A stretch of DNA of 64,000 nt from a virus: positions 32,001 through 96,000 of IMG/VR virus record IMGVR_UViG_3300016471_001132; one strand, 5' to 3'. Below, piece by piece: positions 7,238-31,387 of the stretch. The position numbers and the translations under genes are program-made. Each line of letters opens with the position of its first letter. Position 1 is the stretch's first letter. Under the pieces are notes generated by a model, which saw nothing but the letters and a program-made list of their open reading frames with translations, searched no databases and was not told the DNA's origin.

Positions 7238-7255
7238 CCAGTATTTATGTACTGT

Positions 7256-7450
7256 TTACTTGACTTCTTTGGGTTGTCCTACCAGCACATTGGGATTGAG
7301 ATACTGTGCCCGGATCACCCGCCTTGCCATTTCGGCATTGCGGGCCATCACAGTAGTGTCCATCTGCTGTGTATATCCTTTTTGCTGCAGTTTAAGCCTC
7401 ACTCGGTAGGTCTTGAGAGGTGGACGAGTTTGGAATTCCTGAGCTCGCAT
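7256..7450 (-). CDS. Small tagged protein
   Basis: Starts MRAQEFQT; 64 aa. Confidence 0.7.
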   Translation of the reverse strand: MRAQEFQTRPPLKTYRVRLKLQQKGYTQQMDTTVMARNAEMARRVIRAQYLNPNVLVGQPKEVK

Positions 7451-7451
7451 A

Positions 7452-8236: not shown

Positions 8237-8274
8237 TGCGTTAGGTGCTCCTATGCCAATATTTAGCCAAAACA

Positions 8275-8297
8275 AAGCCCGCCAAAGTGACGGGCTT
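8275..8297 (-). terminator. Rho-independent terminator
   Basis: AAGCCCG-9 nt-CGGGCTT stem followed by TGTTTT on the minus strand. Confidence 0.6.
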
Positions 8298-8317
8298 GTT
8301 ACGCAAATAGGCGTACT

Positions 8318-8818: not shown

Positions 8819-8986
8819 TTTCCTGCTCCTTTATTTGTTTAAGACCCAGTGGATCCCATATTTTCTTTTTTTCTACCTTTTTCGGTTCGTAATGGAAGTA
8901 CAGTATGTAATACAGTACCGCAAAACACTCCAGTATCACGAACACAAAAAATGATTCCATTATCAATGACATGATTATTTTTCTTG

Positions 8987-11978: not shown

Positions 11979-12068
11979 TTTACAGTCTAGCTCCTTAGGC
12001 TAACTCAAGTTTATTTACAAGGAACCGACTAGTAAGTTTTGTGCAGTGTTTTCTGTGTAAGAGTATTT

Positions 12069-12302
12069 TTACGCGATACTGCTGGCCACCATCACGGCCG
12101 ACACCAAAGCCGACTTGACATCGAGGTCGTCGGCTTCGCTGTCAAGGCGATCAGCACGCACGAGATCTTCCATGAGTTCTTTGTATTCGCTTGTAGATAT
12201 CTCACGAGCAGCATAGGATTCAGCCAGTTGCAGGGCCATCTGGGCACGCTGTTCTGCCCAAGGACGACCACAGGCCGCCAATTGTTGTAGTTGTTCAAAC
12301 AT
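12069..12302 (-). CDS. Hypothetical protein
   Basis: 77 aa, adjacent to the lipoprotein gene. Confidence 0.65.
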   Translation of the reverse strand: MFEQLQQLAACGRPWAEQRAQMALQLAESYAAREISTSEYKELMEDLVRADRLDSEADDLDVKSALVSAVMVASSIA

Positions 12303-12692
12303 TTACCATCTCCCTAAGACAGAACCAGCGGCTCTGTCTATCTGTCCTACGAGAACTTTCTTCTTGATCTCGCAATAGGTCCGTGACCCTTCTTGGGTGG
12401 CAGATCTCTTGGCCCAATCAACAGCCGTCTGCTCCATGGGTTCTACTAATTTTAATACATCTTGTTGGCTACGGCCCTTGCTGTCGGAATACAGTCGGAA
12501 CCATTGTATGTCCTGGACGATGGCATCGGCCTGGGCGGCCTGTGCTTTCGTACAGTCTATGTTGTGTATCTTTTGCCGCACATCAATGATTTTCGCACTC
12601 TGATTGTCGTCCCAGAAACTGGGAATATATTTGTACATGTTGGCACAACCAGTCAAGGTCATGACCATAGCTATGACGAGTATCTTTTTCAT
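12303..12692 (-). CDS. Lipoprotein
   Basis: Lipobox LTGC after MKKILVIAMVMT. Confidence 0.75.
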   Translation of the reverse strand: MKKILVIAMVMTLTGCANMYKYIPSFWDDNQSAKIIDVRQKIHNIDCTKAQAAQADAIVQDIQWFRLYSDSKGRSQQDVLKLVEPMEQTAVDWAKRSATQEGSRTYCEIKKKVLVGQIDRAAGSVLGRW

Positions 12693-12713
12693 TTTTTCTT
12701 TTTTCCTATAATC

Positions 12714-13373
12714 CTACTTATCATACGGAAGGAATCTAAATCCCATCTCAAATGGTGTTTTTCCAATGTGTTTCTCTTCGAGATACGCTTTGCTTCTACA
12801 TACGCTCAAAAGATTTATTGGAACATGATTGTTAGTAGTACAGAGTTTTATGATATAGTTGCCAGTGATCGATACTGGACAATGCTTGGCCGCTAATCTC
12901 GATGATTCATATTGTCCCCACGGCGTGAGAAAGTATCCACGAGCATTGGGATTATTTCTCCCCGTCTTTGATTGAGAATATCTCTGTTTGGCCAGTTCGC
13001 TGCGAGGAGGTTGTTGGCAACCTTTTTTCTTCTGGCTCACTATCTGTGCTAACTCTTGCCGTAGTTTTTCATAAAAACGAGATTGTTTGATGACATTGTG
13101 TCTATCTGCTTTGCCTCGACCTGTAAGATAGAACACAGACATCACCATCTTTTTACGGGCTTCATTTGTGGTCATACGGGTAAGCAAGAGATGGCAAACA
13201 AAGTGTTCTCTGGCTGTGAGATCTACAAGATTGGATGGACTATTATCGCCGCCTAAACTGCGAGGGATGATGTGATGTCGTTCAGTATAGCCTGCGATGG
13301 TTCTTGATCTTGCTCGATCAACGATGTTATTATACCAACGGCTGTATTTGTTTTGTAAATACACGGCTGACAT
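12714..13373 (-). mobile_element. Free-standing HNH homing endonuclease
   Basis: YTERHHIIPRSLGGDNSPSNLVDLTAREHFVCHLLL; basic C-terminal DNA-binding region. Confidence 0.88.
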
Positions 13374-13424
13374 GGTCCTTTCATGTTAGAGTGGGTGGAG
13401 GTTGCCGCCTCGCGACCCGCACTA

Positions 13425-13802
13425 TTACTTATCGCGGAACAAGCGATTTATCCGAGCGATAGGATCTTCTTCCGCAGTTTCTTCCAAGGCGGCTTCCGAC
13501 TTGAAATATTTTTTGCCGAGAGATACCACATGGTCATCGTTGGCTCTTCGGATGGCTTCCATGCTGTTTTCAGCCGAAGCAATATAGTCATAAACTTCTT
13601 GTTTGAATTTGGGGAAGTTGGGATGCCCTTCCATCTTTGTACCTGGTGATTTTTGATTCAACTGCCTGATGGTGGAAGCAGCGACCTCTTTTGGAGTAGT
13701 GCCTGCGTTGACACGATTTTTCAAGAATGAACCGATGATACCTTCCGCCACACCTTGCTCGGCGGATTCGATAAGATTGATGTATTCGCGAAGTGTTTTC
13801 AT
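13425..13802 (-). CDS. Tagged hypothetical protein
   Basis: Starts MKTLREYINLIESAEQGVAEG; TAAATA upstream. Confidence 0.75.
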   Translation of the reverse strand: MKTLREYINLIESAEQGVAEGIIGSFLKNRVNAGTTPKEVAASTIRQLNQKSPGTKMEGHPNFPKFKQEVYDYIASAENSMEAIRRANDDHVVSLGKKYFKSEAALEETAEEDPIARINRLFRDK

Positions 13803-13808
13803 AGTCTA

Positions 13809-15596
13809 TTATTTATCCTTCCTTGCTTTGCCACGCCGCATGTTGAGTTGCCATTGTGCCATCCTGCGACGCTCGCCTGTGCTGCTCTTGGCTATCTTTT
13901 CCAGTTGGCCCAGCGTGGCTTTCTTGGGTATGCCCACTCTGCGACTCAGACCCTTGCGGCCAGGTTTCTTGCCATCTGCGAAATTTTCATCCAATGATTG
14001 TTTTTTAGCATAACGATTGGCCCAATTTGTATAACCATTGAAAGTATCAAAGGTTCCTTGACGATCTCGTAAGAATCGTTGTTCGGGCTTGGGTATTTTC
14101 CACACAGCAATGGGTTTCATCACGCCATAGTTAACAACATTCATATATCTTTGCATGAGATATTGTAGTGTCTGTGGTTTAAGTTTACTGATCAACCATT
14201 TGCCAGCCATGGCTATGGTTTCAAAACTTACATTGGGTTTAGATAACTCTGCTTTAAGATCCTCGGGTATGCCTTGAATCAATGCCGACAAGTTAAGCGG
14301 AAGATTTTTTGCCTTAACAAATTTTTCTAGCAGTCTTCCTAATTCATCCTCATCTGGCGATGTTTGTGAAAGACTCTTACCTGAAAATTCAAACACATAA
14401 CCATAGGGTTCTTGTTTGATATAATCAGCATATTGTTCATCTGGAACATCGCTCATAAAACTATATCTCACAGCGTTGCCAAACTCTTTTGACAGATACA
14501 CTCCTGGCAACGGAGAAAAGTTTTTACTTCCTTTGTATTTTTGTGCAATTAGTTCGGGATCAAACTTCAACCCATTTCTCATGATTCCTTGAGCATTGCT
14601 CAAACTAGGAGTTCCGTGATAAAGTGTAGAGGATTGGACCGAAATTGGTGGGGGTGCCATTTCTTTGACCCGACCATCGGCGAAGTTTTCGCCCATTTCT
14701 GCCTCCCAGACCTCCTTGCCTTTCCAGTGCCGGCGGCCCGCATCAGTCTGATTAGCGTTGGGCACGATCCGGCCCAGTTGAGACTTGGCGAAATCATACA
14801 TCACACGGGCGATGCCTTGGCCACGATAGCGTTCATCCACCTGGAGTTCTTCGCCTTCCCAACCATGACCAGTGTCAGTGAAGTAACCGCTGCCTAACTC
14901 GCGTTCGCCCGTGCCATCCATGGCAGTGACATACAGGGTTTTACCATCATCAGAATATTCGTACTGGATGTTGAGACCATCTTGGCTGGCTCGGGCTTCC
15001 GCAACCACAGGCTCGTCCATGAAATCGCTCAAGGGATCCACTATCACGAGTTGTCCGTTGGCACGCTGCATGATGTTGGCCACATTGCCGAGATCGTACT
15101 CATATTTGTCTGCTCGGCCACTGCCATACAGTTGATCCACGGCCTGGACCAAGCCATCCACTTGTTGTGCTGTCAGTCCTGCGGGCACCTGATCCAAGTC
15201 GGGATATTCACCGCGACCCATCTTGGCCATGGCCTGTTCCAGATAGTCTAGTACTGCTTGGTCACCGGGCAAGGAATACAGTCGTTCTTGTGTGTACATA
15301 TAGTAGGTTTTGCCGTTCCAACGCAGGGTCTTGTCTACACCCACTCGGGGAAAGTGTGGATTGCGTTGATGCTCACGGAAGAAGTTGACATATCTACGCA
15401 CCACATCTTGTCTCACATCGCTGCCCTGTCCCACTATCTTCAACACGGTGCGGCTGCCGGGCTTGGACATCACGATCTGATCGCGACCTTCGCCGTCGAT
15501 CTCCCAGCCCCGATCGGTGAATCTTTCGATGAGATCAGGATCCACCGTGAGTTCACCGGCGGCATTGACTTCGGAGATGAAATCTCGGGCTCTCAT
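13809..15596 (-). CDS. Polyprotein: Ser/Thr kinase-like + GNAT acetyltransferase + ADP-ribosyltransferase + basic module
   Basis: Start MRARDFISE (ATGA overlap at 15593-15596); VLK..HFPRV..YDLGNVANIM..IVDP; LQVDERYRGQGIA; LYHGT..GL..GVYLS....AVRY..DEDE; ends ENFADGKKPGRKGL. Confidence 0.8.
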   Translation of the reverse strand: MRARDFISEVNAAGELTVDPDLIERFTDRGWEIDGEGRDQIVMSKPGSRTVLKIVGQGSDVRQDVVRRYVNFFREHQRNPHFPRVGVDKTLRWNGKTYYMYTQERLYSLPGDQAVLDYLEQAMAKMGRGEYPDLDQVPAGLTAQQVDGLVQAVDQLYGSGRADKYEYDLGNVANIMQRANGQLVIVDPLSDFMDEPVVAEARASQDGLNIQYEYSDDGKTLYVTAMDGTGERELGSGYFTDTGHGWEGEELQVDERYRGQGIARVMYDFAKSQLGRIVPNANQTDAGRRHWKGKEVWEAEMGENFADGRVKEMAPPPISVQSSTLYHGTPSLSNAQGIMRNGLKFDPELIAQKYKGSKNFSPLPGVYLSKEFGNAVRYSFMSDVPDEQYADYIKQEPYGYVFEFSGKSLSQTSPDEDELGRLLEKFVKAKNLPLNLSALIQGIPEDLKAELSKPNVSFETIAMAGKWLISKLKPQTLQYLMQRYMNVVNYGVMKPIAVWKIPKPEQRFLRDRQGTFDTFNGYTNWANRYAKKQSLDENFADGKKPGRKGLSRRVGIPKKATLGQLEKIAKSSTGERRRMAQWQLNMRRGKARKDK

Positions 15597-17047
15597 GCGG
15601 CCGCTCCGATCCAGGCGTTGATCTTGAATCCTTCGGGATTCAGCCGGAAAGCAGCCATAGTCCTGTGCCAACCTTCCACCAGTTCTAATCCGTTGGGGTG
15701 TTGCAACATGATCACTGGGGGGAGATTCTCCATGCCCTTGGCCTTGACTAATTCTATGGCCTGCTCCAAGCGTTCACGATCTCTGGGTATCATGAAGGGA
15801 TTTTTATTGCCAAAGTCTCGTTTGATCTTCATGCGATATCTAGTAGTAGGATCCAGCATATCGAAAGTCAAAGGCATCCGCTGCACCAACCGCCATTGAT
15901 CCGCCATGGTAGCCAACTCACGCACATGATCCAGTTTCAGTTCGAGATCCTGTGGTGACTTGATCTTGGATATCACCATATCTTTTAGCACATAGTCGGG
16001 CCAACCTGGTAATTCATCTCGCAGGATGTCCATGACACCACGCTGCACTTCTGTGATACCTGATCGCTTGCGTTCCCAAACAAATACGGTCATGTCTCCG
16101 GGCACGATCGTCAACTGCCACTGATCGCCCAGGATGTCTTGGATCACTGGCACGAAATATCGCTTGTACAGCTCGATGCGGCTGGCACCTTTGGCTGTAA
16201 ATGTGACCCGGGGTGGGCGTGCTGACTTCATGTACTGGGGTAACTGTTCGCGGACGATGTTCAGCACAGTGCTGAGGATGCGTATCACCGATCCACTGGC
16301 CTTTGTGGGCCGGGGTGGTGCTTCGTAGTTTTGATTCACTGTGAATGTGATCTGTAGGCTGTCATTGATAGGGCTGCGGTCAAAGAACACATCCACCCAT
16401 TGGCTGTCTACTGTGGCATGAAACAGGCTACGCCGCCTGCGACGATTGGGCTCATACTCGCTGGGTGAGTCACCTATCTCGTTCAGCGTACCCCTCACAC
16501 GATCAAAGAATGTGGGGTTGGGTGCACCCTTGACCTCGCCATGTCGTTTATGTTGTCCAGCATAGTCATAATAGCGACCCACCACATCAAACGCAGGCTC
16601 AAAGAACACTGCTTGTGGTGTGAGCCCACCTTTGAGTATGCCCACACGACGCTTGCCTGGGGGTGCGTCTCGGACCTCTCGAGGATCTCTATGCCCGATG
16701 GGCTGTAACCAAGCATCGGGTCGTTTCTTGACCAACCACACATAGGGAAAGTCCATGGCATATTCGCCCTGTGACATCATGCTGAGATAGGTTCGCAAGG
16801 GATAGAACCACAAAGCCCTGCGGCCACCTCCACGACTGCTTGTACCTATGCTCGAGACTGAGAAACTGGGATCATCGATTTCCACATGCCGCTTGAACTT
16901 CTGCCGATCGCTGAAACCTATTTTATCTACTTCGGTGAAACGCACGAAGTAGTCCCGGGGATCACCACCGTGTTGACGCACGGCATCCTGTATCTGTCCA
17001 CGGATGCTGGCCGCCTTACGCTCGGTGATGAATTCCTGTGCTCGCAT
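15593..17047 (-). CDS. Tagged multi-domain protein with C-terminal ParB/Srx-like domain
   Basis: Starts MRAQEFITE; C-terminal LPPVIML..GLELVEGWHRTMAA; two unassigned N-terminal domains. Confidence 0.7.
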   Translation of the reverse strand: MRAQEFITERKAASIRGQIQDAVRQHGGDPRDYFVRFTEVDKIGFSDRQKFKRHVEIDDPSFSVSSIGTSSRGGGRRALWFYPLRTYLSMMSQGEYAMDFPYVWLVKKRPDAWLQPIGHRDPREVRDAPPGKRRVGILKGGLTPQAVFFEPAFDVVGRYYDYAGQHKRHGEVKGAPNPTFFDRVRGTLNEIGDSPSEYEPNRRRRRSLFHATVDSQWVDVFFDRSPINDSLQITFTVNQNYEAPPRPTKASGSVIRILSTVLNIVREQLPQYMKSARPPRVTFTAKGASRIELYKRYFVPVIQDILGDQWQLTIVPGDMTVFVWERKRSGITEVQRGVMDILRDELPGWPDYVLKDMVISKIKSPQDLELKLDHVRELATMADQWRLVQRMPLTFDMLDPTTRYRMKIKRDFGNKNPFMIPRDRERLEQAIELVKAKGMENLPPVIMLQHPNGLELVEGWHRTMAAFRLNPEGFKINAWIGAAA

Positions 17048-17101
17048 ATCAGTTATGTATAGGTCCGCCTTTCACCAACCTCTTCACCCCGGGTTGCTCT
17101 A

Positions 17102-17785
17102 TCACGAGTTAATCTGGTTCTGTACAATAAGGTCATGTGTTCTTTGGTTTAATTTAACTGTAAGAATCATAGAATAAACATGATTAGTAAAACTAAAAAC
17201 AGAATGTTCTCTTTGAAAGTTAACAAAATAAAAATATCCCGGATCAAAGTATGTAGGAACTCCCCCTAACATTTGAACAAAGTTTTCAGGTTTGCATTTT
17301 CCAAATACTGTAATTAATCTAATATATTCCGGACAAGCACCTACAAAGTCAACGTGTGGCGGAAAGTATCCGCCAGCGTCTAATTTTAGAAAATGTACTC
17401 TACCTATGTCAGGCTGAAACATATCAACTACGGGTTGTATCTGCGGCAATGCGTGATATACCTGCGTAGGTGTTGCAAAGTTCTCTTCCTTCATCTCAAT
17501 GTTGTGGTATTGTTGCATACCCCCAAAACTCTTAAGATGATAGTTATCCATTACATCTCCTGTATGACTAGTTATTGGGAGTCCCCATCTGGTACTATGT
17601 GTGTCTTCATTTTGACCTGGGGGCCGCTGTCCCCAGGACGGACTGTAAGGGCACCAGTTATTTTCAAATTGTGCAAGATCCTTTTCTAACTTAATGGGAT
17701 TAACAAACATTTTTAATTTAAAATATTCTCCCATATTAGCAAGGCTGTTGAACAACATGCCTCTTTCAAGCTCTTCGTATGTCAT
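17102..17785 (-). CDS. 2OG-Fe(II) oxygenase (Asp/Asn beta-hydroxylase-like)
   Basis: RVHFLKLDAGGYFPPHVD (HxD) ... REHSVF; locally AT-rich. Confidence 0.75.
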   Translation of the reverse strand: MTYEELERGMLFNSLANMGEYFKLKMFVNPIKLEKDLAQFENNWCPYSPSWGQRPPGQNEDTHSTRWGLPITSHTGDVMDNYHLKSFGGMQQYHNIEMKEENFATPTQVYHALPQIQPVVDMFQPDIGRVHFLKLDAGGYFPPHVDFVGACPEYIRLITVFGKCKPENFVQMLGGVPTYFDPGYFYFVNFQREHSVFSFTNHVYSMILTVKLNQRTHDLIVQNQINS

Positions 17786-17799
17786 TTAACTCTCTCTGA

Positions 17800-17867
17800 T
17801 AATATCTCATTAATTCTCATCTCTTCCAAACTTTGTTCTTGTAGGCCAGGAACTGCTTGAATTGTTC
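17800..17867. repeat. 68-bp direct repeat, copy A
   Basis: 62/68 identical to 18737-18804 by manual alignment. Confidence 0.9.
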
Positions 17868-17874
17868 TCGCATG

Positions 17875-18285
17875 CTAATCCTTGGAGACAGGTCCGCCTT
17901 CGACCCAAGCATCACAGGTGCGCTTGGCAGCACACTTGAATTTCAGGAACTTGCAGTAGCCCAACTGTCCAGCGTCGATGGTGTCGTGGGGATCACTTCC
18001 AGGTTCACTGCCGATGCCCTTGGCTATGCAATCCAGCATGTCGGGGCTGATGTCAAAGGCCGCACAGTTGCCGCAGCGATTCTGTTTCACTGATTCGATA
18101 TCGTCGGTGTTCCACTTGTCGGCCAACTTCTGCCAGTATTCTTCGTTGGGTTCGTTGGGATTGAGAGGACCATAATGATATTCGTCTATGGCCTTCTGGC
18201 GATTCTCCAGATTGAGATCGATGTTCTGCGTGGCGGGTGGGCAGCCTTTTTCGATGGCTTCCAATAGGTTGATTATGTCTCTCAT
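17875..18285 (-). CDS. Tagged Cys-rich protein (HiPIP-like 4-Cys pattern)
   Basis: Starts MRDIINLLE; RCGNCAAF...GYC......CAAKRTCDAW. Confidence 0.65.
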   Translation of the reverse strand: MRDIINLLEAIEKGCPPATQNIDLNLENRQKAIDEYHYGPLNPNEPNEEYWQKLADKWNTDDIESVKQNRCGNCAAFDISPDMLDCIAKGIGSEPGSDPHDTIDAGQLGYCKFLKFKCAAKRTCDAWVEGGPVSKD

Positions 18286-18286
18286 G

Positions 18287-18757
18287 TTATCCACCATGCA
18301 TGCCTTGCTTGATGATGTGTCGGAGATCGCCCAAGGCCTCTTCTTCAGTGTCATAGCCACTGTTGTCCTTGCCCGAAGCATAGTGCCGCATGTAGTATTG
18401 ACCAACACCGGCACTGGATTCTCTGTCGATACCGACTTCGCCCACGGGCTGGCCTTTGTGTTTGACGATCTTGCGTTGTTGATCGGCATGACCTTCCTGC
18501 ACAGGTTTGATTGGTCCACGCAAGGTATCTATGAGTTCACCCCCAAAATCGGGGTCTCTCATGATGGCACGCACCCGGATGTCGCTCATGCCCATGCGTA
18601 GGAGTTCACGAGCAGCATCACTGAGTATGTCATCTTCCGAGGCCTTCAGATAACTTTTACCAGGATTGTTGTCCAGCATGGCTCTGCTGACCTGATATAT
18701 GGTGTTGTCTTGGCCTTCCGCCACACCTTGTTCTACTAATATCTCGTTGATTCTCAT
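18287..18757 (-). CDS. Tagged two-module hypothetical protein
   Basis: Starts MRINEILVEQGVAEG; internal PVQEGHADQ linker. Confidence 0.75.
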   Translation of the reverse strand: MRINEILVEQGVAEGQDNTIYQVSRAMLDNNPGKSYLKASEDDILSDAARELLRMGMSDIRVRAIMRDPDFGGELIDTLRGPIKPVQEGHADQQRKIVKHKGQPVGEVGIDRESSAGVGQYYMRHYASGKDNSGYDTEEEALGDLRHIIKQGMHGG

Positions 18758-18804
18758 CTCTTCCACACTTTCTTCTTGTAGGCCAGGAACTGTTTGAACT
18801 GTTC
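18737..18804. repeat. 68-bp direct repeat, copy B
   Basis: Spans the junction of the 18754 and 18287 ORFs; 62/68 identical to 17800-17867. Confidence 0.9.
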
Positions 18805-19158
18805 CAGGGTTGATTCATACTTGGCCAGCATCTCGGCCATCTCACTATCGGTCCGGGGCACGGGCCAAGCACGGATCACATCCAAGTCTGCTTCGATGCC
18901 GGGATCCATGCCCAGTCTTGTGCGGCCGATGCGTTCGGCCGTTTTCTCTATCATGTTGGCCACTGCCAGGATTTTTTCCAGCCTGCGGATCTCTGCTTGT
19001 AATGTGGCCAAGTCCTTGCCAGGGGCAGCAGGCACAGGAGCCACTGATATCTGTGCCACTTGTTCGCCGGGCTGATTCATGGCCTGTTTGATCTGCGTGA
19101 GAGCAGCCATGGCTCGATCTGTCAGTGGTGCTTCTGTAAGTATTTCTTGTACTCTCAT
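18754..19158 (-). CDS. Tagged hypothetical helical protein
   Basis: Starts MRVQEILTE; TAATG overlap with the upstream giant ORF. Confidence 0.75.
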   Translation of the reverse strand: MRVQEILTEAPLTDRAMAALTQIKQAMNQPGEQVAQISVAPVPAAPGKDLATLQAEIRRLEKILAVANMIEKTAERIGRTRLGMDPGIEADLDVIRAWPVPRTDSEMAEMLAKYESTLEQFKQFLAYKKKVWKR

Positions 19159-22100
19159 TATCTCATCTCCGGCACTACTTCTGCTTCGTTGCCCAGCGTG
19201 CCTTGTCTATAACCTTGTTGTGCCAACCAGCGAGCAGCATATCTGTTGGCATCACTTTGCGAATTGCCTATGCCGTGGAATCTGGTAAGTTCACGCCCTT
19301 CAGCATCTCGCACGATCCAGTGGCCGGTCCACTCGCCCGGTGGCACATCAAGCCTGGCACGCACATCGTCAGCGTCTTGATTGTCATCTCTCTGCTGTTG
19401 GTTCTGTTGGCGTATGCGTTCCTGATCCATGCGATAGGTCTCGATCTCTTGTTGATCGGCCAGCCTGGCTCTGGCATCCTCATGACCAAAGTCGCTGTCT
19501 ATCATGGCGGCTTTTTGGATGGCTTCGGCTTGACTACGGGCCACGATGTTCTTTATCTTGCTGTGAAAGTTCACACGCCACAGTTGCTCGCCCACATCCC
19601 GGGTGCTGCGAGTCACACGCTTGGCCAACTCGGCTCTACGGCTGGGGGGTGCTTTGGGTTTTTTTGGTTCTTGGTGCACACGCACTTTCCACGTTGGATT
19701 CTGTGGTCTGAAGTTCGAATTGAAATATTTGATCGCTGCTTCGTCATCTTCGGCGTGGAATACACTGATCACGTTGCCAGATTCTGGGTCGTAGACATCA
19801 TAGTCTTTGTCGATGAAGGGAGGAATATCCTCTTCTTGCTCTGCATCCTGTTCGGCTCGCAGCACAGTTTCAGCCCACTGGCGCTTGAGTTCATCACCCG
19901 AGATGTAACCGGTGGAGTAGTCAGCGAACAATCGCATGAAAGGATCCTCGTCTTCGGTCTCGATACGGGTCTGGAATCTGGTATCCTTGGCACCTTTGGC
20001 TATCTCGGCACCTTTGTAGCCCGACAGCATTTTGTAGAGTTTCTTGGCATATTCTTTACGGTGCAGTTCGGGACTGCCGGCTATGCTCATGGCATAGGCC
20101 AAGCGTAACATGGTGTTTTCCAAGGTGCCTTCGATCTCGCTTTCTTTAGAGAGATAGTCTCCGCCAGGACCGCGGAACTCGATGTAGCCATCGTGTGGAT
20201 TCACGCTCACATACTTTTCGCCCAGCACACCACGCTGGAGTTCACGGTCGGCCAACTCGATGAGATTTTTCTTCATCAGTTCCATAACACCCGCGATCTG
20301 CTTGGGACCGGCTCTTTTCATGCTGGAGATCTTGTTTTGCAGTCGTTCGTAGGCGGACCGGGTGTAGTAGTTGCTGGCCCGGTCGAACTTGTCCAGCAGG
20401 TCCCGGTCGCCCATGAACAGGATCAGTTTGATGGGATCCACATCTCCGCCCTTGAACGGCAGACTCACGCCCATGTGCAGGCCGGTACTGCTGTTGGTAT
20501 AAGCATCACCGGAGCCATTGGCCCAGTCTATGACCTTGTTCAGTTGCTCGATGGCTTCAGGCAAGGGCATGGGAGGTGATACGATCTCCAAGCCGTAGTC
20601 TTCCGAGTCATCGGCATCCAGGCTGCCATCGGGTTCGATCACATAATAATCGCCACGACGGGTGCCGTGATAGCCCGAGCTCACACGCACATCCAGGCCA
20701 GTGGCACGCTCCAGGCTGTTGGCGATGTCCCGCCATTCACGCTCGCCACCATTGCCACCGCCTTCGGTCCAGTAGGGCCATTCCAGGCTCCACTCGTTGC
20801 TGACATCACTCATGTAGCGCATGCCCGAACTATCTAGCCAATCGGCTTGGTCGGCTTCGGCAGCATATTCGTCATAGAGTTCTTCCCTAGCACGGTCATA
20901 CCAGTCGCCACTGCGATCCCAATCACGCTCGGCATCGTCACGGAACAGTTGAACGGCCTGCTTTTCCAGTTCTTCATCTGAGATTTCTTCGTCGCCCAGG
21001 GCATCACGGGCCTGCTCTCGATATTCGTCGTCGACTTCGGGCCAGATGTTGTCATCGACCCAACTCATGTATCGATCCATGTCAAAGTAGTTTTCGATGA
21101 AACTGTCGTTGACCCAGTCATAGAACTGTTCAGTCAAATCTTGCGACAAGCGATCGGCCGCTCGGGCCGAAATACCATTGTCGCCGCCACGGAAGAAGTC
21201 GATGATTTCTTGGATGCTGGATGCACGCTCGTCCATGTCCCAGTCGGGCTCGCTCTCGCCACCGTCGCCGTCGTGCTGGGTGTCGCGGAATATGAGTTCG
21301 GCCTCGAAGCCAGCACGGATACCCTTGGCAGCATCACTGTTGAGGAATTTTTTGAACGCCGATGGACTCATCTCTACTTCCATGAGATCTTCATCTTCAG
21401 CAAGGCTTTCTACACTGAATGGACTCATATCTTCTACTGGAATAATTTTGGCTGTGATGGCAGGTTGTTTGGTCAGGATGGCTTTATGTGCCCTATGCGT
21501 TCCGTCAGCGATCCATAAACTACCATTCTTCCGTCGAACCACGATAATGGGATACTTGAGATCGGCTTTTGCCACTCGAGATTGCGATTGTGCAGGGTCT
21601 TCTTCGCGACCAACAATTTGGTCGTGGAACTGCGTAGGATCGACTTTTTCAGTTGGATATTTTGCAGCAAAATCTACTAAATCTTTTATGTTGAAACGGA
21701 ATGATTCGCCATCAATACCAATACCTGCAGTTTGATCCAGGCCAGATCCTTCCGACACTTTCACACAGTTGGGAACCTGGCGGTCGCCCTTCCGTTTCAT
21801 ACCTTGTTGTTTGTATCCTGACCAGCAATCTTCGTCGGTCTTGACGCTCTCTAATAGATTGTTCAACTTCTTCATCAGCAGCGGAGGAACACCAGCGGCG
21901 TCGGTCTTGAATCCCATCTTCCGAGCCTGGCGTTGGATCTCACCTGGTTTTATATCCTGCGTGATGGCCATGCTATATCTTGGATCTCGCGCTTCTCGGT
22001 CGTCGATGGGAATGTAGCCGGTGGCTTCGTTCACAGGCTGTTCACCAGCAGCACGGATGTCGGGTATGGGCAAGCGTGTGGGTTGATCAGTGTGACCACC

Positions 22101-23984
22101 TTGACGACGCAGCCAGTTATGGAACTCTTGCGCAAATTCAGCCTTGACATCAGGAGAACGAAGTTGACTGGCACCATAGATCCAGCGAGCGGCATTCAAG
22201 ATCTTGGCAGCAGTCACAGGCTCTTGTGGTTGTGCTGTAGGCTCTTGTGCCTGTACGAAACTGGCAGCAGCAGCGAACACAGCGGTCAACAAGGCTTTGG
22301 ACACTGCACCTTCGGCCACTTGGCCCTTCATCTTCATCACTGCCGCAAAGCTAGTCAGGAACTGCTGTTCGGCTTTGGAGAGAGGACGACCCATGCGGGC
22401 TTTGCCCTGTAAGAAGTCATAGTACTGTTTGATGTGCCGGGGATCTTGGCTTACAGGAGTCTGGATGGCTTCGTCTAGTTCACCGGCAAATATCTCAGGA
22501 TGATGCTCGCGGAAGTCACGCATGATGCGACCGGCTAGAGCGTTGGCCTCGTCTTCGAATCTGCTGCCAGTCTCACCACCATCGGCTGGAATACCTTCGC
22601 GCTCTTCTTGGTGATGATGCACCAGTTCGTGTGCTAATGTACGCATGACATCGGCCATGTGTCGTCCAGCCACACTGACTTCTAATGTATTATTGTCAGG
22701 ATCATAATGACCGAATGTGCCATTGACTTGGCTCCATTGTGGATCTCGGCGTATTTTGATTTTGGGACACGATTCGATTCCTAGTTTATCACAAACATAT
22801 TCTGTGAATTTTTGCAAGATAGACGCCGAGCTCTGCTGCTCGTCCATCCGGTATTCCGCTTCAGGATCTTTGTTCTTGGCTCGGCGATCTATATCCAGGG
22901 TCTTCATGCCCAAGCGGTCTAGATCCTTCTTGTACATGTGTTCGATAGGCTCGCTACCAAAACTCAGCACAGTTTGCGGAGCACCTTTGCCATAGGCCTT
23001 GGGGTCAGCATGTTTGAGATCGCTGATATCCTGTCCCAGTTTGTACCAATCATAAACATCACTTACATTGACCAATATTGTACCTGCTGGCATCTCGGGT
23101 TTGAACTCAGGTCCAGGTGGTTCAGCATTGGGATCATAATCTTCTTTCGTGCTTTCGCCACCACCATCACCACCGCCATCTGTGGCAGCATCACTACCAC
23201 CATAATAATGATAGCCTGGGAACCAGTAAGCACCATAGCCGTAACGGGTTTTCTTCTTTTTGGTTTTGCGCTCGTCAAGGCTCATCATCGAGTCTTTGGC
23301 TTCTTTTCTGGCATCACGTAGTTTTTCTAGTGTACCGTTGCCACGAAGTATTTTGAATGCTAGATTCTCCGGGCCAAACTCGCCAGTGGTCTCCAATCCA
23401 GCCTGCCGCATCTCTCGGATCTTGGCAGCCATTGCGTCCATCCGGCCAAGATCACCACTCTTGATGGCTTGTTCTATGCGTTGCCCTATGTCTTCGTATT
23501 TGCTCCGGACAGAGATATCATCCACTGTGGGCCGGCGGCGTGCAGGGACCTTGATCCAGTCATTGTTGAGGACCGAGTAGATGCCTTGGCTCACATGCGG
23601 CTGGTTGGCGTTTTGCACATACAGCTCTACATCGTAGCCGCCGATCTTGTAGTCGTGCTGATCGTTATATTGGTACTTTTTGGCATCAAAAAGCTCGCGG
23701 TAGACATCGCTGGCATCAGCTCGAGGTAGGTCTACCACCAGATGCAAATCGATGTCCGAATGTGGTGTATATGTGTAAGCAGCGTTTGATCCAGAGATCG
23801 TTATATCTTTGATCTCGAGATCGGTGATGCCCAGGCTTTCGCGGAAATCATCTGCTATCTGTAGAAGCTTTTGCCGCACTTCGGGCAAGAGATGTTCATC
23901 TGAACCCCACAGTCGGGGGTTCAGATTATCATTGAATTTTACAGCGTCGGAAAGACGATAGGTTTCTAACTCACGGAGGTCCAT
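19158..23984 (-). CDS. 1608-aa polyprotein: nucleotidyltransferase + HExxH metallopeptidase + ParB-like + putative amidoligase + small modules
   Basis: ISGSNA..SDIDLH (Pol-beta NTase); TLAHELVHH..EDEAN; YPIIV..IADGTHR; GFEAEL..GLEIVSPP..STGLHMG..YIEFRGPG. Confidence 0.8.
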   Translation of the reverse strand: MDLRELETYRLSDAVKFNDNLNPRLWGSDEHLLPEVRQKLLQIADDFRESLGITDLEIKDITISGSNAAYTYTPHSDIDLHLVVDLPRADASDVYRELFDAKKYQYNDQHDYKIGGYDVELYVQNANQPHVSQGIYSVLNNDWIKVPARRRPTVDDISVRSKYEDIGQRIEQAIKSGDLGRMDAMAAKIREMRQAGLETTGEFGPENLAFKILRGNGTLEKLRDARKEAKDSMMSLDERKTKKKKTRYGYGAYWFPGYHYYGGSDAATDGGGDGGGESTKEDYDPNAEPPGPEFKPEMPAGTILVNVSDVYDWYKLGQDISDLKHADPKAYGKGAPQTVLSFGSEPIEHMYKKDLDRLGMKTLDIDRRAKNKDPEAEYRMDEQQSSASILQKFTEYVCDKLGIESCPKIKIRRDPQWSQVNGTFGHYDPDNNTLEVSVAGRHMADVMRTLAHELVHHHQEEREGIPADGGETGSRFEDEANALAGRIMRDFREHHPEIFAGELDEAIQTPVSQDPRHIKQYYDFLQGKARMGRPLSKAEQQFLTSFAAVMKMKGQVAEGAVSKALLTAVFAAAASFVQAQEPTAQPQEPVTAAKILNAARWIYGASQLRSPDVKAEFAQEFHNWLRRQGGHTDQPTRLPIPDIRAAGEQPVNEATGYIPIDDREARDPRYSMAITQDIKPGEIQRQARKMGFKTDAAGVPPLLMKKLNNLLESVKTDEDCWSGYKQQGMKRKGDRQVPNCVKVSEGSGLDQTAGIGIDGESFRFNIKDLVDFAAKYPTEKVDPTQFHDQIVGREEDPAQSQSRVAKADLKYPIIVVRRKNGSLWIADGTHRAHKAILTKQPAITAKIIPVEDMSPFSVESLAEDEDLMEVEMSPSAFKKFLNSDAAKGIRAGFEAELIFRDTQHDGDGGESEPDWDMDERASSIQEIIDFFRGGDNGISARAADRLSQDLTEQFYDWVNDSFIENYFDMDRYMSWVDDNIWPEVDDEYREQARDALGDEEISDEELEKQAVQLFRDDAERDWDRSGDWYDRAREELYDEYAAEADQADWLDSSGMRYMSDVSNEWSLEWPYWTEGGGNGGEREWRDIANSLERATGLDVRVSSGYHGTRRGDYYVIEPDGSLDADDSEDYGLEIVSPPMPLPEAIEQLNKVIDWANGSGDAYTNSSTGLHMGVSLPFKGGDVDPIKLILFMGDRDLLDKFDRASNYYTRSAYERLQNKISSMKRAGPKQIAGVMELMKKNLIELADRELQRGVLGEKYVSVNPHDGYIEFRGPGGDYLSKESEIEGTLENTMLRLAYAMSIAGSPELHRKEYAKKLYKMLSGYKGAEIAKGAKDTRFQTRIETEDEDPFMRLFADYSTGYISGDELKRQWAETVLRAEQDAEQEEDIPPFIDKDYDVYDPESGNVISVFHAEDDEAAIKYFNSNFRPQNPTWKVRVHQEPKKPKAPPSRRAELAKRVTRSTRDVGEQLWRVNFHSKIKNIVARSQAEAIQKAAMIDSDFGHEDARARLADQQEIETYRMDQERIRQQNQQQRDDNQDADDVRARLDVPPGEWTGHWIVRDAEGRELTRFHGIGNSQSDANRYAARWLAQQGYRQGTLGNEAEVVPEMR

Positions 23985-23989
23985 GAGTG

Positions 23990-23995
23990 TATTTA
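23990..23995 (-). promoter_or_regulatory. Late-type promoter TAAATA (example of ~20 copies)
   Basis: GGTAAATACACTCATG before the 1608-aa ORF; same motif at 6826, 7242, 8260, 12012, 13810, 24901, 26251, 27232, 30593, 33124, 38284, 42558, 44884, 46128, 49958, 53920, 54800, 61628 (minus) and 38396 (plus). Confidence 0.7.
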
Positions 23996-23998
23996 CCG

Positions 23999-26245: not shown

Positions 26246-26260
26246 ACCAGTATTTACCGT

Positions 26261-27234: not shown

Positions 27235-27918
27235 TTAGTATATTTTGATGGGCAGTGTTTTTCTCACTATGTGTCCCAGAGCCAAGGCCAACAGGGTGAG
27301 CACACCGGAATCATTGTGATCGACGAAGTAATGATCATTGAGATGCAGTTGCGTATCGCTGTCCAACCACGCATCCAAACTTGGGCTCAGTCTGATATCA
27401 GTTTGATTTCTCAACACAGTGCGCAGATTGTTTTTCTGCGACAAAGTCACTGCGGACCAGCGGAAATAAGTGCGTTGTTGATAGTCGCTGCGCTTGAGAT
27501 TGATAGCTCCGGGATTTCCTGTGAGTTGAGCCTTTGATAGTTGTCCAGAATTTTTTCCATACGATGCAATGAGCTGGTCTCCCACCGACGAGTCGTTGGT
27601 ATAAAGGTGCAACCAGTCACTGTGGAGCATGATCTTGACACTGTCCCCAAGGGACATGATATAATCCAAAACATTGTGTAAATTCTGGGATTCTTCCTCT
27701 GTGATATCCATCCGCGACCACAACCAGCTGCCTGGTTGCTGGGACATTTTTTGTCCCCACTCTCGCCGATTTTGCAATACCTTGTCCATCACGGCGTGAG
27801 ATCGATGACGCAATACAAAGGCTTCACGCAGTCGGATCGTGGCACAGAATTCGTACTTTCCGAAAAACAGCGTGCTGCGTTTTTTTGTGGATATTTTAAC
27901 TGACAACGATGTATCCAT
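27235..27918 (-). CDS. Hypothetical protein
   Basis: 227 aa following clpA. Confidence 0.7.
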   Translation of the reverse strand: MDTSLSVKISTKKRSTLFFGKYEFCATIRLREAFVLRHRSHAVMDKVLQNRREWGQKMSQQPGSWLWSRMDITEEESQNLHNVLDYIMSLGDSVKIMLHSDWLHLYTNDSSVGDQLIASYGKNSGQLSKAQLTGNPGAINLKRSDYQQRTYFRWSAVTLSQKNNLRTVLRNQTDIRLSPSLDAWLDSDTQLHLNDHYFVDHNDSGVLTLLALALGHIVRKTLPIKIY

Positions 27919-30157
27919 TGGGATCTACCACAGGTTGTGCACCGTCGGCTGTTGTATCAAAAACGATTTCACCACCTTTGATATCCACAGTGATCGAACA
28001 ATCTTTGAGCCTATCGAACAAGATGCGCTTGCTCAGTGGCACCCGAATCAGTTCATCGATCTTACGGTTCAAGGGTCTAGCACCCATGCGGCTGTCATAG
28101 CCTTTGTCGGCTAGATATTCCACTGCGGCTTCGGTGAGGTTCAACCGGATGTTCTTGTCTGCCAGTCCTGTGCGCAGTTGATCCATGAACTTGATCACGA
28201 TCTTCTTGATGGCCAGCATGTCCAGTTTGGAGAATTTCACCGTGGCGTCGATCCTGTTGCGCATCTCCGGACGGAAAAAATCTTTAAGCGCACGATCTTC
28301 TGAGCCTGTACGCTCGAGATCTTGACCGAAACCGATGTTGTTGTTTTCGTTGTCGCGAGCACCCAAATTAGATGTCATGATGATGATGGTGTTTTTGCAG
28401 TCAACCGTCTTGCCGTTGCTGGATGTGATCCTACCTTCGTCCAACATCTGTAGCAGGATGTTAGAAACATCTGGGTGTGCTTTTTCTATCTCGTCGAACA
28501 GGATGATGGCGTAAGGATTCTTGGTCAGATCGGAAATGAGTTTGCCTCCACCTACATTACCGTCTTGGAAACCCACATATCCCGGGGGAGCACCGATCAG
28601 GCTGCTGACAGTATGTTTTTCCTGATACTCACTCATGTCATATTTCAACAATGGCATGTCCAGATACTTCTCCAGCAAGCGAGCCAGTTCTGTTTTTCCT
28701 GTGCCGGTGGGCCCTATGAACAGGAAACTGGCCATGGGCCGGCTGCCGGGCCCGATTCCGGCGTAATTGATGTATATACGCTCCAGCACAGTATCTACCG
28801 CGGTGTCTTGTCCATGTAGATATTGCTTGATGTTGATGTCTAGATCCCTGATGCGGTCAGTGATATCGTTGCGCAATCGATCCAGTGGCACTCCTACTAC
28901 TCTACTGACCTGGGCCTGGATCATGTCCCGTGTGATGGTCACTGTGCCTGCATCCTTCACACGCTCACGAGCACATGCACCATCTAAGAGATCGATGCTC
29001 TTGTCGGGATTCTTTTTGTCATGGATATATCTTCCTGACAACTCAACCGCTGCTGTCATGGCTTCTGTTTCAATCATGACATCGTGGAATGTTTCTAGTC
29101 TGGGGCTCAAGCCGATCAGGATCTGTTCCGTGACTGCGGCAGTGGGTTCGTCTATGCTGAGTCTATGGAATCGGCGCATCAACGCCCGATCCTGCTCAAA
29201 GCTTTCGTAATATTCTTCCCATGTAGTGCTGGCAATCACTTTGAGATGTCCTTTGGTGATAGCCGGTTTGATCATGTTGGCGAAGTCTAGGCTGCTTTGT
29301 GAACTGGCCCCTGCGCCTTTCATGGTGTGCGCTTCGTCGATAAACAGAACACAGTTCTTTTTGGATTCTAGCGCAGTGATCACTACCTTGAGCTTTTCTT
29401 CGAACTCGCCACGATATTTAGATCCAGCCAACAGGCCACCGATCTCCAAGCTCCATACTTCGTGATTCTTGAGGAACCTGGGCACATCGTTTTGGGCGAT
29501 CCGTTGTGCCAAACCTTCTACGATGGCTGTCTTGCCCACCCCGGGGTCTCCCACCATGAGCACATTGGCCTTGAATCGTCGGGCCAACACCGTGACCATT
29601 TCTTCGACTTCGGTGTCGCGACCGATCATGGGTTCCAGTCTGTCTTGTTTGGCCAGTTCAGTGAGATTGGTGCAATATTCTTCCAGGATCTCCTGGGCCT
29701 GCTGGTCAGTGATTTTGTGCCCTGTATGGTTGTAATTTTTTTCCCAGAAGGTCACGAACTCTTGTTTGGTCACACCGTACTTCAAAAAGAAGTAATGTGC
29801 ATGGCTGTTGGTTTCGCTCATCATGGCCAGGAACAGATCCGCAGTGGTCATGGTCCGTCTGCCAGTGAACAGCACTTGTGTCAGGGCGCGATTGAACACC
29901 CTTTCCAGCGAATTGGTTTTCCTGGGATTTACTTCGGCATCGTTCGTGGTCAAGTTTTGCAAAGAGCCAAGATAATTTTCAACATCTTGTATCATGGTAC
30001 CAAGATCAGCACCAAATTTTTCCAAAACAGTTGCAAATGGTTGATGTTGCAAAAGACTGAGCATGAGGTGCTCTGTGAGCACATAACGATGGCCGCGTTC
30101 TTTGGCCAACTTCATAGCATTTTCAATGATGTGCTCGATTTCAGGATTATTCTGCAT
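27896..30157 (-). CDS. clpA: Clp protease ATP-binding subunit ClpA
   Basis: Clp-N domain; two AAA+ modules GDPGVGKT/FIDEAH and GPTGTGKT/FDEIEKAHP. Confidence 0.92.
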   Translation of the reverse strand: MQNNPEIEHIIENAMKLAKERGHRYVLTEHLMLSLLQHQPFATVLEKFGADLGTMIQDVENYLGSLQNLTTNDAEVNPRKTNSLERVFNRALTQVLFTGRRTMTTADLFLAMMSETNSHAHYFFLKYGVTKQEFVTFWEKNYNHTGHKITDQQAQEILEEYCTNLTELAKQDRLEPMIGRDTEVEEMVTVLARRFKANVLMVGDPGVGKTAIVEGLAQRIAQNDVPRFLKNHEVWSLEIGGLLAGSKYRGEFEEKLKVVITALESKKNCVLFIDEAHTMKGAGASSQSSLDFANMIKPAITKGHLKVIASTTWEEYYESFEQDRALMRRFHRLSIDEPTAAVTEQILIGLSPRLETFHDVMIETEAMTAAVELSGRYIHDKKNPDKSIDLLDGACARERVKDAGTVTITRDMIQAQVSRVVGVPLDRLRNDITDRIRDLDINIKQYLHGQDTAVDTVLERIYINYAGIGPGSRPMASFLFIGPTGTGKTELARLLEKYLDMPLLKYDMSEYQEKHTVSSLIGAPPGYVGFQDGNVGGGKLISDLTKNPYAIILFDEIEKAHPDVSNILLQMLDEGRITSSNGKTVDCKNTIIIMTSNLGARDNENNNIGFGQDLERTGSEDRALKDFFRPEMRNRIDATVKFSKLDMLAIKKIVIKFMDQLRTGLADKNIRLNLTEAAVEYLADKGYDSRMGARPLNRKIDELIRVPLSKRILFDRLKDCSITVDIKGGEIVFDTTADGAQPVVDPNGYIVVS

Positions 30158-30587
30158 GCTTTTCCTTTTGTCTATCATACATGGTTACGCCATCCAAATG
30201 ATCCAGTTCATGCTGGAAACATCTTGCTTCTAATCCCACGAGATCTTCCTCTATCCACAGCCCTTGGGCATCTTGATAGCGGACACTTATGGCATCGGGT
30301 CGTGTTATTGTACATGATTCTCCGGGAAAACTCAAGCAACCTTCTGCATATTTGGTTAATACGGTGCTACTTTGGATGATCTCCGGGTTGAAACACACAC
30401 GGGCCCTATCTTCAACTTCCATGACAAACAATCTAAGACTGTGCCCTATCTGTGGAGCTGCCAGTCCAATGGCCCTATGTTGCTGCATGAATTGGATCAT
30501 TTGTTTGACTAGACTTTGATTTTTATGCGGCCAGACAAAGTCGACGGTTTTGGCCTTTTTGTACAGGACTCTTTTGGTCAGCTTCAT
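30147..30587 (-). CDS. def: Peptide deformylase
   Basis: GLAAPQIG, EGCLS, QHELDH motifs. Confidence 0.95.
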   Translation of the reverse strand: MKLTKRVLYKKAKTVDFVWPHKNQSLVKQMIQFMQQHRAIGLAAPQIGHSLRLFVMEVEDRARVCFNPEIIQSSTVLTKYAEGCLSFPGESCTITRPDAISVRYQDAQGLWIEEDLVGLEARCFQHELDHLDGVTMYDRQKEKHAE

Positions 30588-30595
30588 TGAAATAT

Positions 30596-31387
30596 TTATT
30601 GGCCGCGCTCTTTCCTGACAGCATCTAGAAAATGATCGCTGAATCTATCCGGAATTTTTACGGATAATCGTACCATAATATCTCCCACTCGATTGGTGGA
30701 TTTACCAGGGATAGTGCTGGGTGGAATCCCTTGTGCTCGCATCCTTAGGCTGGTACCAGGTTGGGTACCTGCGGGCACAGTCAGCATGAGCTCACGACCA
30801 CGCACATCGCGAACTGTGATCTGTCCACCCAATATGAGATCATACAAGGGCACTGGTATCTCTGTGATTAGATCTTGTCCTTCCCGTTGCCATCCGGGTT
30901 CGGGTCTGATGCGATAATTGATGATGAGATCTGCCCCGCCTGGTGCCAGTCCAGGGTATCGTATGGTATCATTTTCAGCCACCCCCTGTGGGATGTCGAT
31001 CTGTATGTGGCTGACCTGATCGCCTAACTGCAATGCCACTGTTCTTGGTCCACCCTCTATGACATCTTTGAGGGTCACCCACAGTGTCATCCTAGGAACT
31101 CTGGGATTGTGCCCTCGTAGATTCGCACCAAACATGTTGAAGATCTGGTCGAAATCGAATCCGCCTTGTGCAAAATTCACATGTACACCGGACGGCATGG
31201 GATTGTCGTACTGTTGGCGCTGTTCCGGGTCTCCCAGTATATTGTACGCTTCCTGTATCTCCTGGAATCGTGCTTTATCGCCGCCCTTGTCTGGATGATG
31301 CTGACTGGCCAACTTCCTATAGGCCCGTTTGATATCTTCGGCGGTGGCTGTTTTTGGCACACCAAGAATTTGGTAATAATTCTTCAC
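30596..31387 (-). CDS. DnaJ/CbpA-type co-chaperone
   Basis: J-domain with HPD; C-terminal DnaJ_C; no Zn finger. Confidence 0.92.
   Translation of the reverse strand: MKNYYQILGVPKTATAEDIKRAYRKLASQHHPDKGGDKARFQEIQEAYNILGDPEQRQQYDNPMPSGVHVNFAQGGFDFDQIFNMFGANLRGHNPRVPRMTLWVTLKDVIEGGPRTVALQLGDQVSHIQIDIPQGVAENDTIRYPGLAPGGADLIINYRIRPEPGWQREGQDLITEIPVPLYDLILGGQITVRDVRGRELMLTVPAGTQPGTSLRMRAQGIPPSTIPGKSTNRVGDIMVRLSVKIPDRFSDHFLDAVRKERGQ

Follow-up and report, generated by a model that had tools for sequence, protein, structure and literature searches.

The polyprotein gene and its family

The DNA analysed here, termed the window, is a stretch of 64,000 nucleotides covering positions 32,001 to 96,000 of the virus record IMGVR_UViG_3300016471_001132 in IMG/VR. 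On its minus strand, at 19158..23984, lies an uninterrupted open reading frame (ORF) with an ATG start that encodes 1608 amino acids and a stop codon. Its product, P0001, is referred to below as the polyprotein. A preliminary description of the window had marked this frame, now confirmed in position, strand and start, and had read the product as a string of unrelated domains that a head protease cuts apart. An identical protein is present on seven public contigs, which together with the uninterrupted frame means that the gene is real and no assembly chimera. The record itself is a 136-kb fragment with a CheckV completeness of 39%, suggesting a genome of ~350 kb.

A megablast search of the gene against 50,697 phage records returned no match, and tblastn of the polyprotein against named phages gave matches to single domains only. 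Scans with NCBIfam and PADLOC found marginal matches only, including one of the N-terminal nucleotidyltransferase to the PADLOC candidates PDC-M05A/S09 (E 3e-4 to 0.03). A word-indexed search found more than 1000 related proteins of 900-2800 amino acids, many of them on contigs of 260-370 kb. The detailed comparison used the best 119 homologues (BLAST coverage map) and an alignment of 120 homologues.

Members of the family share a conserved order of nucleotidyltransferase (NTase), metallopeptidase (MPTase), a 60-residue module with the motif SGYIP, and amidoligase. The stretches between them are variable and act as slots for cassettes. In P0001 these are a CWxGY hairpin and a ParB-like module; in other members they are SLT, GH19, GNAT, sigma-70 region 4, DUF5661 or DUF6886 domains. 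Peptidoglycan hydrolase domains are a typical feature of proteins that virions deliver. The NTase and the ParB-like module both exist as standalone phage proteins, and a small module ahead of the peptidase (module X) and the SGYIP module vary in place or host protein. Given the slot variation, the relocation of module X and the spread of the SGYIP module, P0001 consists of shared mobile modules on a conserved scaffold. The bead-on-string architecture proposed earlier is supported, as modules occur alone elsewhere and relocate within the family, with disordered linkers between them; the comparison of domain order across related phages suggested at that time gives a fixed core with variable slots.

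The three core enzymes

The polyprotein begins with an NTase of the Pol-beta superfamily with a helical C-terminal half (residues 1-238; 23271..23984, minus strand), whose last residues are S-L-D-E. It matches phrog_36119 with an E-value of 2e-40 and, as a domain alone, PF01909 (NTP_transf_2) with 21.3 bits against a cut-off of 21. GS at 65-66 is followed by D77-I-D79, and G65, D77, D79 and E120 are invariant among 42 sequences. The GS...DxD signature, a third carboxylate and the profile matches characterize a Pol-beta NTase, in agreement with the original call from GS...DID. PF01909 is found in 28 of the 30 nearest named Atlas clusters, all of them viral standalone proteins of ~230-250 amino acids. 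In Synechococcus phage S-B68 and Maribacter phage Molly, the standalone NTase terminates exactly at ...SLR/...SLD.

Behind the NTase is a low-complexity linker (residues 239-298; 23091..23270, minus strand) that runs from poly-Lys to Tyr/Gly/aromatic and then to Gly/Asp residues. The Lys/Gly/Tyr insert described previously is therefore present; it is disordered in the model, with a predicted local distance difference test (pLDDT) of 33-45, and is conserved as a motif in the polyprotein family. The standalone protein P0121 ends in a similar tail.

The second enzyme is a zincin (gluzincin-like) metallopeptidase (residues 382-505; 22470..22841, minus strand), with HELVH at 452-456 and E477 as the third ligand. 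At a pLDDT of 94-98 it is the best-predicted part of the N-terminal structure model. H452, E453, H456 and E477, together with an Arg and a Gln, are invariant in the metallopeptidase of 85 homologues. Structural comparison with VIA-align ranks AQ_1354/YbeY first (Z 9.2), followed by Wss1 (8.6), SPRTN (8.5), ERAP1 (8.4) and selecase (7.9), with ArdC at 5.5, and nearly all of the top 22 matches are zincins. Foldseek points to IrrE and minigluzincins with probabilities of 0.93-0.99 and weak E-values. The invariant H, E, H and downstream E on a zincin fold substantiate the HELVH...E peptidase that had been recognized by its motif.

The third enzyme is a carboxylate-amine ligase related to glutamine synthetase (GS) and PafA, of the Amidoligase_2 family (residues 864-1385; 19830..21395, minus strand). 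PF12224 is matched with an E-value of 4e-7 and 28.6-30.7 bits against a curated cut-off of 22. The domain is modelled with a pLDDT of 85-98, and in VIA-align its best matches are glutamine synthetases (Z 8.5-10.2 over ~190 residues), followed by Dop/PafA (7.2-7.7), glutamate-cysteine ligases and YbdK (7.0). The motifs GFEAE, IEPDGS, GLEIVSPP, TGLH and YIEFR are invariant, which supplies the E-x-E, E..D, H and E-F-R residues of the GS-like ligases. The amidoligase assignment and the motifs listed for it were therefore correct. A confidently predicted helical insert, large and acidic, follows GFEAE in this domain. Compared with GS, glutamate-cysteine ligase/YbdK, PafA/Dop and other PF12224 proteins, the fold (Z 7-10.2), the conserved acidic and His/Arg motifs and the Pfam membership are shared; the ~150-200-residue insert after the first strand motif and the fusion into a phage polyprotein set it apart.

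No significant match among PDB sequences came from profile searches with the alignments of the three enzymes. Foldseek on both multi-domain models returned weak E-values (0.03-0.3), yet consistent families; the usable scores are those of VIA-align. In the models the peptidase and amidoligase are well folded and separated by disordered linkers, and the ParB-like region is left unfolded.

The long low-complexity linkers, basic and Gly/Tyr-rich, and the acidic helical insert would also suit a structural or scaffolding filler of a large head, comparable to an inner body, in which the enzyme folds are decayed or incidental. Giant phages of the phiKZ type do contain much internal protein (PMC9026906). 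In each of the three enzymes, however, the catalytic residues are invariant across 85 or more homologues, which is not expected of a filler and makes this role highly improbable.

Slot cargo and small modules

Module X is a small alpha/beta module (residues 299-381; 22842..23090, minus strand) without a family match, modelled at a pLDDT of 52-73. It precedes the peptidase in P0001 and lies between the SGYIP module and the amidoligase in many homologues. Behind the peptidase, a helical spacer (residues 506-653; 22026..22469, minus strand; pLDDT 55-91) occupies the position termed slot A of the family. In some homologues slot A holds SLT or DUF5661 cargo, with SLT there in P0008 and P0037.

The SGYIP...DPR...LLMKKLNNLLE module follows (residues 654-712; 21849..22025, minus strand; pLDDT 52-74) and none of the 120 homologues lacks it. 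HMMER matches to it come from 468 representative clusters, at any position in proteins of 71-2006 amino acids. Next to it is the CWxGY...PNCV module (residues 713-745; 21750..21848, minus strand), which ends in V-S-E and is modelled as two beta-hairpins (pLDDT 68-81). Its core, residues 722-742, occurs in 32 of the 120 homologues and matches PHROGs 4359, 9737 and 727. The CWSGY...PNCV module singled out in the preliminary description is indeed a recurring beta-hairpin module.

Such small Cys modules are also found elsewhere. P0129, a protein of 226 amino acids, is a string of them, of the types KWSxKYKxSINC..PxGFSQR, KWFxEKWVRF..G and CWxGY..PNCV, together with the SGYIP module. In the window, the genes at 3095-3379 and 3477-3737 (minus strand) encode small Cys modules as separate leader-tagged mini-genes.

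Slot B carries the module with DGTHR (residues 746-863; 21396..21749, minus strand), which is likely ParB/Srx-like judging from its profile matches. It matches phrog_17560 with an E-value of 8e-10. With a profile of seven sequences, in which DGTHR is invariant, the sole PDB matches are SbnI (twice) and a ParB, at weak E-values of 0.05-0.09. Pfam gives ParBc_2 (E 0.014) in two of the seven and the VapB-like PF23719 (~0.01) in six. SbnI is an ATP-dependent serine kinase. No BLAST match to the module exists among the 119 best polyprotein homologues. Standalone homologues of 129-164 amino acids are 62-68% identical in the alignment, and several of them begin with MRAxEF leaders. Since nearly no homologue in the alignment carries the module, the region is unfolded in the model, with a pLDDT of 30-60. 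The earlier ParB/Srx assignment is likely in view of the PHROG match and of PDB matches confined to ParB/Srx folds, and is tempered by their E-values and the unfolded model.

The C-terminal region (residues 1386-1608; 19161..19829, minus strand) is predicted as three small beta-beta-alpha-beta modules and one long helix with a pLDDT of 85-95, consistent with the small modules described there before. It occurs in 50-90 of the 119 homologues, and its modules have no match in family scans.

Joints between the modules

It had been proposed that the modules meet at joints ending in glutamate, at which the chain is cut. Module borders were taken as the edges of high-occupancy alignment blocks, and [LIV]xE (the phi-x-E motif) was scored in a span of 16 residues at each. 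The motif is present at the start of the metallopeptidase in 83 of 119 homologues, at the start and end of the SGYIP module in 85 and 113 of 114, and at the start of the amidoligase in 120 of 120, against a background of 17.8% of random spans of that size. At block edges within or beyond the amidoligase the frequency is mostly 0-8%, and 23-28% at two edges.

Individual joints can be followed in the homologue alignment. SLDE|R is kept in 118 of 118, and its position is the exact end of the standalone NTases. LME|V, in the form L-x-E|V-x-MSP, is kept in 119 of 119; LLE|S in 98 of 116; LAE|D in 101 of 109; and PVNE|A in 54 of 110. The sequence KVSE|GSGLDQ of P0001 aligns with VAE|GSGFDQ, which stands behind the MRAxEF leaders of standalone ParB-like homologues. 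VAE|G has a positional counterpart in all 62 homologues that have a conserved hydrophobic segment. In the model, the phi-x-E sites at 651, 743, 861 and 867 fall in disordered linkers. Among the joints named originally, ELDE|A is not conserved as aligned (1 of 16).

Head protease and leader-bearing genes

In T4, the gp21 protease cleaves after L/I-x-E, removes capsid-targeting leaders of 10-19 residues from internal proteins, and trims Alt at both ends (PMC9026906). Five near-complete relatives, reached via related loci (G001-G005; 323-355 kb, 95-100% complete), all encode a Peptidase_S77 of the T4 gp21 type (E 1e-24 to 4e-28) and gp23 (~1e-100). The major capsid protein of these relatives begins with several LLE/ILE/LAE sites.

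Leaders that resemble the T4 capsid-targeting sequence (CTS) are found next to the polyprotein gene. In a listing of N-termini, MR(A/V)xEF/I-(I/V/L)-x-E begins the genes at 3095-3379, 3477-3737, 13809-15596, 15593-17047 and 18754-19158, and looser forms begin those at 2461-3030, 3734-5401 and 13425-13802, all on the minus strand. In the window, the strict form MRxxEF[IL]xE is present at 5 of 203 N-termini versus 2 of 938 internal methionines, and all five lie in an array just downstream of the polyprotein (2461-19158, minus strand). In 55 related loci, the surroundings of the polyprotein contain 59 distinct leader-bearing proteins. The next gene downstream encodes 134 amino acids (18754..19158, minus strand); its start overlaps the polyprotein stop, and its product begins with the CTS-like MRVQEILTE. 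Its sole match in the five near-complete relatives is inside an open frame of 1122 amino acids (G003:C1:141856-142116), and it is a further standalone cargo gene that forms a module of a longer protein elsewhere.

Possible secretion signals

After Q-V-A-E in the helical spacer, residues 559-581 (22242..22310, minus strand) form a stretch with one Lys, a hydrophobic run of 14 residues and V-Q-A. Its Kyte-Doolittle maximum is 1.79, and the likeness to a signal peptide is heuristic, judged by eye and hydropathy alone. In 62 of the 120 homologues, the stretch from the peptidase to the SGYIP module has a phi-x-E site followed directly by a segment that is first basic, then Ala-rich and then Cys-containing. 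Reading the AAAC(I/V)AGTPGC form of this segment as a lipoprotein signal was set aside, as its spacing, compared by hand with the PROSITE lipobox rule, does not comply.

A clearer case is the homologue P0097, of 1765 amino acids. At about residue 660, ahead of a GH19 domain, it has TVAE|IDRRSFLKG...VAQA, a canonical signal of the Tat type, and a scan for internal Tat motifs found it as the only case among the 120 homologues. Such an internal signal would be workable only if the chain is cut at that point. Two standalone cargo genes, L010:12358 and L035:19662 (plus strand), have the leader MRAxE(F/L)-x-x-E followed directly by a Tat signal (ITRRDFLRG...AQA and IDRRGFLG...AQA), and removal of the leader would bare the secretion signal. 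Of all arguments for processing, the internal Tat signal of P0097 carries the most weight. It is possible, though somewhat doubtful, that cutting in the capsid unmasks Sec or Tat signals at some of the new N-termini and that host translocases re-export the injected cargo to the envelope ("inject, then secrete"). In the same tentative proposal, the two-slot scaffold is a plug-in platform that shuffles effector modules with standalone leader-tagged cargo genes.

Proposed processing and delivery of the polyprotein

The polyprotein is probably polyvalent head cargo of a T4-like jumbo myovirus that is cut by a gp21-type protease and whose pieces enter the next host. In such a scheme the polyprotein would be made late and taken into the prohead, where the gp21-type prohead protease would cleave after the Glu of the conserved (L/I/V)-x-E joints; the pieces would then pass into the next host together with the DNA. 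The released parts would be a Pol-beta NTase of the same extent as the standalone phage enzyme; a minimal zincin peptidase; a short fragment beginning with the signal-peptide-like stretch; the SGYIP module; the slot cargo, here the CWxGY hairpin and a ParB/Srx-like NTP-binding or nuclease module; a GS/PafA-like ATP-dependent carboxylate-amine ligase; and the small C-terminal modules. What these enzymes might do in the first minutes of infection is a guess: covalent modification of host proteins or envelope components by nucleotidylylation, amide ligation and proteolysis.

Cutting by the head protease, as first proposed, draws indirect support from the phi-x-E sites at module borders, the ends of the standalone proteins, the gp21-type protease of the relatives, the CTS-like neighbours and the Tat signal of P0097. 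Several observations weigh against it. The total of [LIV]-x-E in P0001 is 20, compared with 22.2 +/- 4.2 in shuffled sequences, so that the raw count of the proposed joints is at chance. Conserved phi-x-E sites also lie inside the amidoligase core, at 1115 and 1241, and conservation alone is therefore no proof of a cut site. The residues behind the joints (P1') are varied, being R, A, S, G, D or V. The window's own 136-kb record, 39% of a genome, gave no match to Pfam Peptidase_S77 or Gp23. The start of the polyprotein is conserved as MD(L/I)xELE (MDLRELE...), which has L/I-x-E at residues 3-5 in 110 of 118 homologues, differs from the neighbours' leader MRAxEFIxE, and is part of the NTase alignment. 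Finally, the fixed order of the three enzymes in more than 1000 proteins could mean one cooperating chain, and this is the main point that a bead model leaves unexplained.

The same fixed order would be natural for a cytoplasmic multi-enzyme that is never packaged and whose NTase, ligase, peptidase and ParB-like parts cooperate during replication, for example to hypermodify DNA or to alter host proteins or precursors of the envelope. Viral contigs are known in which amidoligase genes accompany those for thymidine hypermodification (PMC8989533), the window holds a radical-SAM gene, and SbnI is the closest PDB match of the ParB-like module. However, no neighbour of the 5-HMUDK or aGPT-Pplase type lies beside the gene, which instead heads an array of CTS-like-tagged genes, and the SLT and GH19 cassettes of the scaffold, together with its secretion signals, are a poor fit with a DNA-modifying factory. 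Such a cytoplasmic role is considered improbable.

The metallopeptidase raises another question, that of which protease acts. As the best conserved and best folded part of the chain, with invariant catalytic residues, it may itself process a packaged and injected polyvalent protein, in the capsid or after delivery, or the chain may be left uncut. Metallopeptidases of this kind are a hub domain of polyvalent proteins, for which autoprocessing has been proposed, and N4 vRNAP, ArdC and TraC1 are transferred uncut (PMC5512222); the fold comparison also retrieves the peptidase domain of ArdC (Z 5.5). Nothing, however, links a gluzincin to cleavage after Glu, and the joints bear the motif of the serine prohead protease, with the same ending as the CTS-like leaders of the neighbours. 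The internal Tat signal of P0097 speaks against an uncut chain, though not against self-cutting. Self-processing or an intact chain is accordingly the foremost alternative to cutting by the head protease, albeit an unlikely one.

Relation to known systems

Polyvalent proteins, as described by Iyer, Burroughs, Anand, de Souza and Aravind in 2017, are single chains, encoded by phages, plasmids or conjugative elements, that combine two to fifteen domains of disparate biochemical activity (PMC5512222). By its sequence P0001 is of this kind, with NTase, zincin, ParB-like module, amidoligase and small modules in one phage ORF. The zincin-like hub domain is present as well, its HExxH followed by a Glu further on. 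Pol-beta NTase, ParB/Srx, GNAT and peptidoglycan hydrolases belong to the published repertoire, and delivery with the DNA and proteolytic release of domains were proposed there too. For P0001, packaging and early delivery are hinted at, indirectly, by the SLT/GH19 cassettes of homologues and the adjacent array of genes with CTS-like leaders. Amidoligases are unmentioned in that work (0 occurrences), and its NTases are minimal ones of Firmicute conjugative elements, fused to ArdC-N. Self-processing by the metallopeptidase was proposed there, whereas the joints of P0001 carry the motif of the T4 prohead protease. The scaffold further differs by its fixed three-enzyme core with swappable slots.

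The T4 internal proteins IPI, IPII, IPIII and Alt (PMC9026906, PMC3012670) are the second point of comparison. The near-complete relatives likewise encode a gp21-type protease and gp23, and the neighbours of P0001 begin with a CTS-like leader of nine residues ending in (I/L/V)-x-E. Both sets are diverse and fast-changing, the one around P0001 being putative host-directed cargo, and T4 Alt is an enzyme cut at both ends. The T4 CTS/gp21 system is known for single-domain cargo with one leader, in contrast to proteins of the P0001 type, with up to about ten modules and predicted internal sites. The N-terminus of P0001 itself also departs from a canonical leader.

In the giant phages phiKZ, 201phi2-1 and SPN3US, gp175/gp245 cleave many head proteins, ejection and inner-body proteins among them, behind the Glu of a three-residue motif; several sites per protein are common, and the products enter the host (PMC9026906, PMC10052503). 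These phages belong to a different lineage, which forms a nucleus and carries a virion RNA polymerase; the motif is S/A/G-x-E and the proteins are mostly non-enzymatic or of unknown fold. In phage P1, DdrB of the Dar system (PMC5512222) unites a ParB/Srx-like domain and a zincin metallopeptidase in one head-packaged, processed anti-defence protein. It has no NTase or amidoligase, P1 makes no use of gp21 and CTS, and the ParB domain of P0001 is not of the DdrB type as far as tested. No paper on the polyprotein family or on gp21-type joints inside polyvalent proteins was found in a search that excluded subscription journals.

If the favoured interpretation is right, a very large uncultured group of T4-like giant phages delivers an enzyme toolkit from one precursor, and the head-maturation protease doubles as the separator of cargo enzymes. 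This would join the polyvalent proteins with the T4 capsid-targeting/gp21 system; provide a simple sequence rule for spotting injected cargo in metagenomic phages; and put many intact NTase, minimal zincin and GS-like ligase modules on offer. Internal secretion signals would predict where the cargo acts. Since the T4 targeting tag is already in use for loading foreign proteins into capsids, a natural multi-module cargo is also of practical interest.

Other features of the locus

The leader-tagged gene at 13809-15596 (minus strand), of 595 amino acids, has a weak match to the Pfam GNAT family Acetyltransf_7 (E 0.003, below the cut-off). A leader start was considered for the 227-amino acid ORF at 17102-17785 and rejected, because the codons for MRINEILSE are in another frame. 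The leader motif is instead borne by an ORF of 12 codons at 17783-17821 (minus strand), MRINEILSERVK-stop, which overlaps the ATG of 17102-17785 in the other frame (..AAATGA..). Frameshifting of a leader, decay of a tag or a sequencing error could account for it.

Ribosomal protein bS21 is encoded by four of the five near-complete relatives (G001, G003, G004 and G005; E 1e-16 to 1e-18). For published bS21 phages from freshwater, up to 331 kb in size, Bacteroidota are the predicted hosts (PMC9723584).

The motif GTAAATAC lies 4 nt upstream of the polyprotein ATG (23989..23996, minus strand), where a Shine-Dalgarno sequence is absent. It has five copies in the window against 0.87 expected, a number reached in 0 of 100 shuffles. 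Minus-strand copies are at 23989-23996, 26250-26257, 53919-53926 and 9423-9430. On that strand the motif stands 4-30 nt before the ATGs of the polyprotein, a cytidylyltransferase-like gene of 409 amino acids and a gene of 1062 amino acids, each without a Shine-Dalgarno sequence. By its placement it is a candidate late-promoter-like box or initiation element, possibly of near-leaderless mRNAs.

A ClpB/ClpA-like double-AAA ATPase (760 amino acids; phrog_4871, E 7e-238), a peptide deformylase and a DnaJ-like protein are encoded together at 27896-31387 (minus strand). This cluster is a phage-encoded set for protein folding and maturation.

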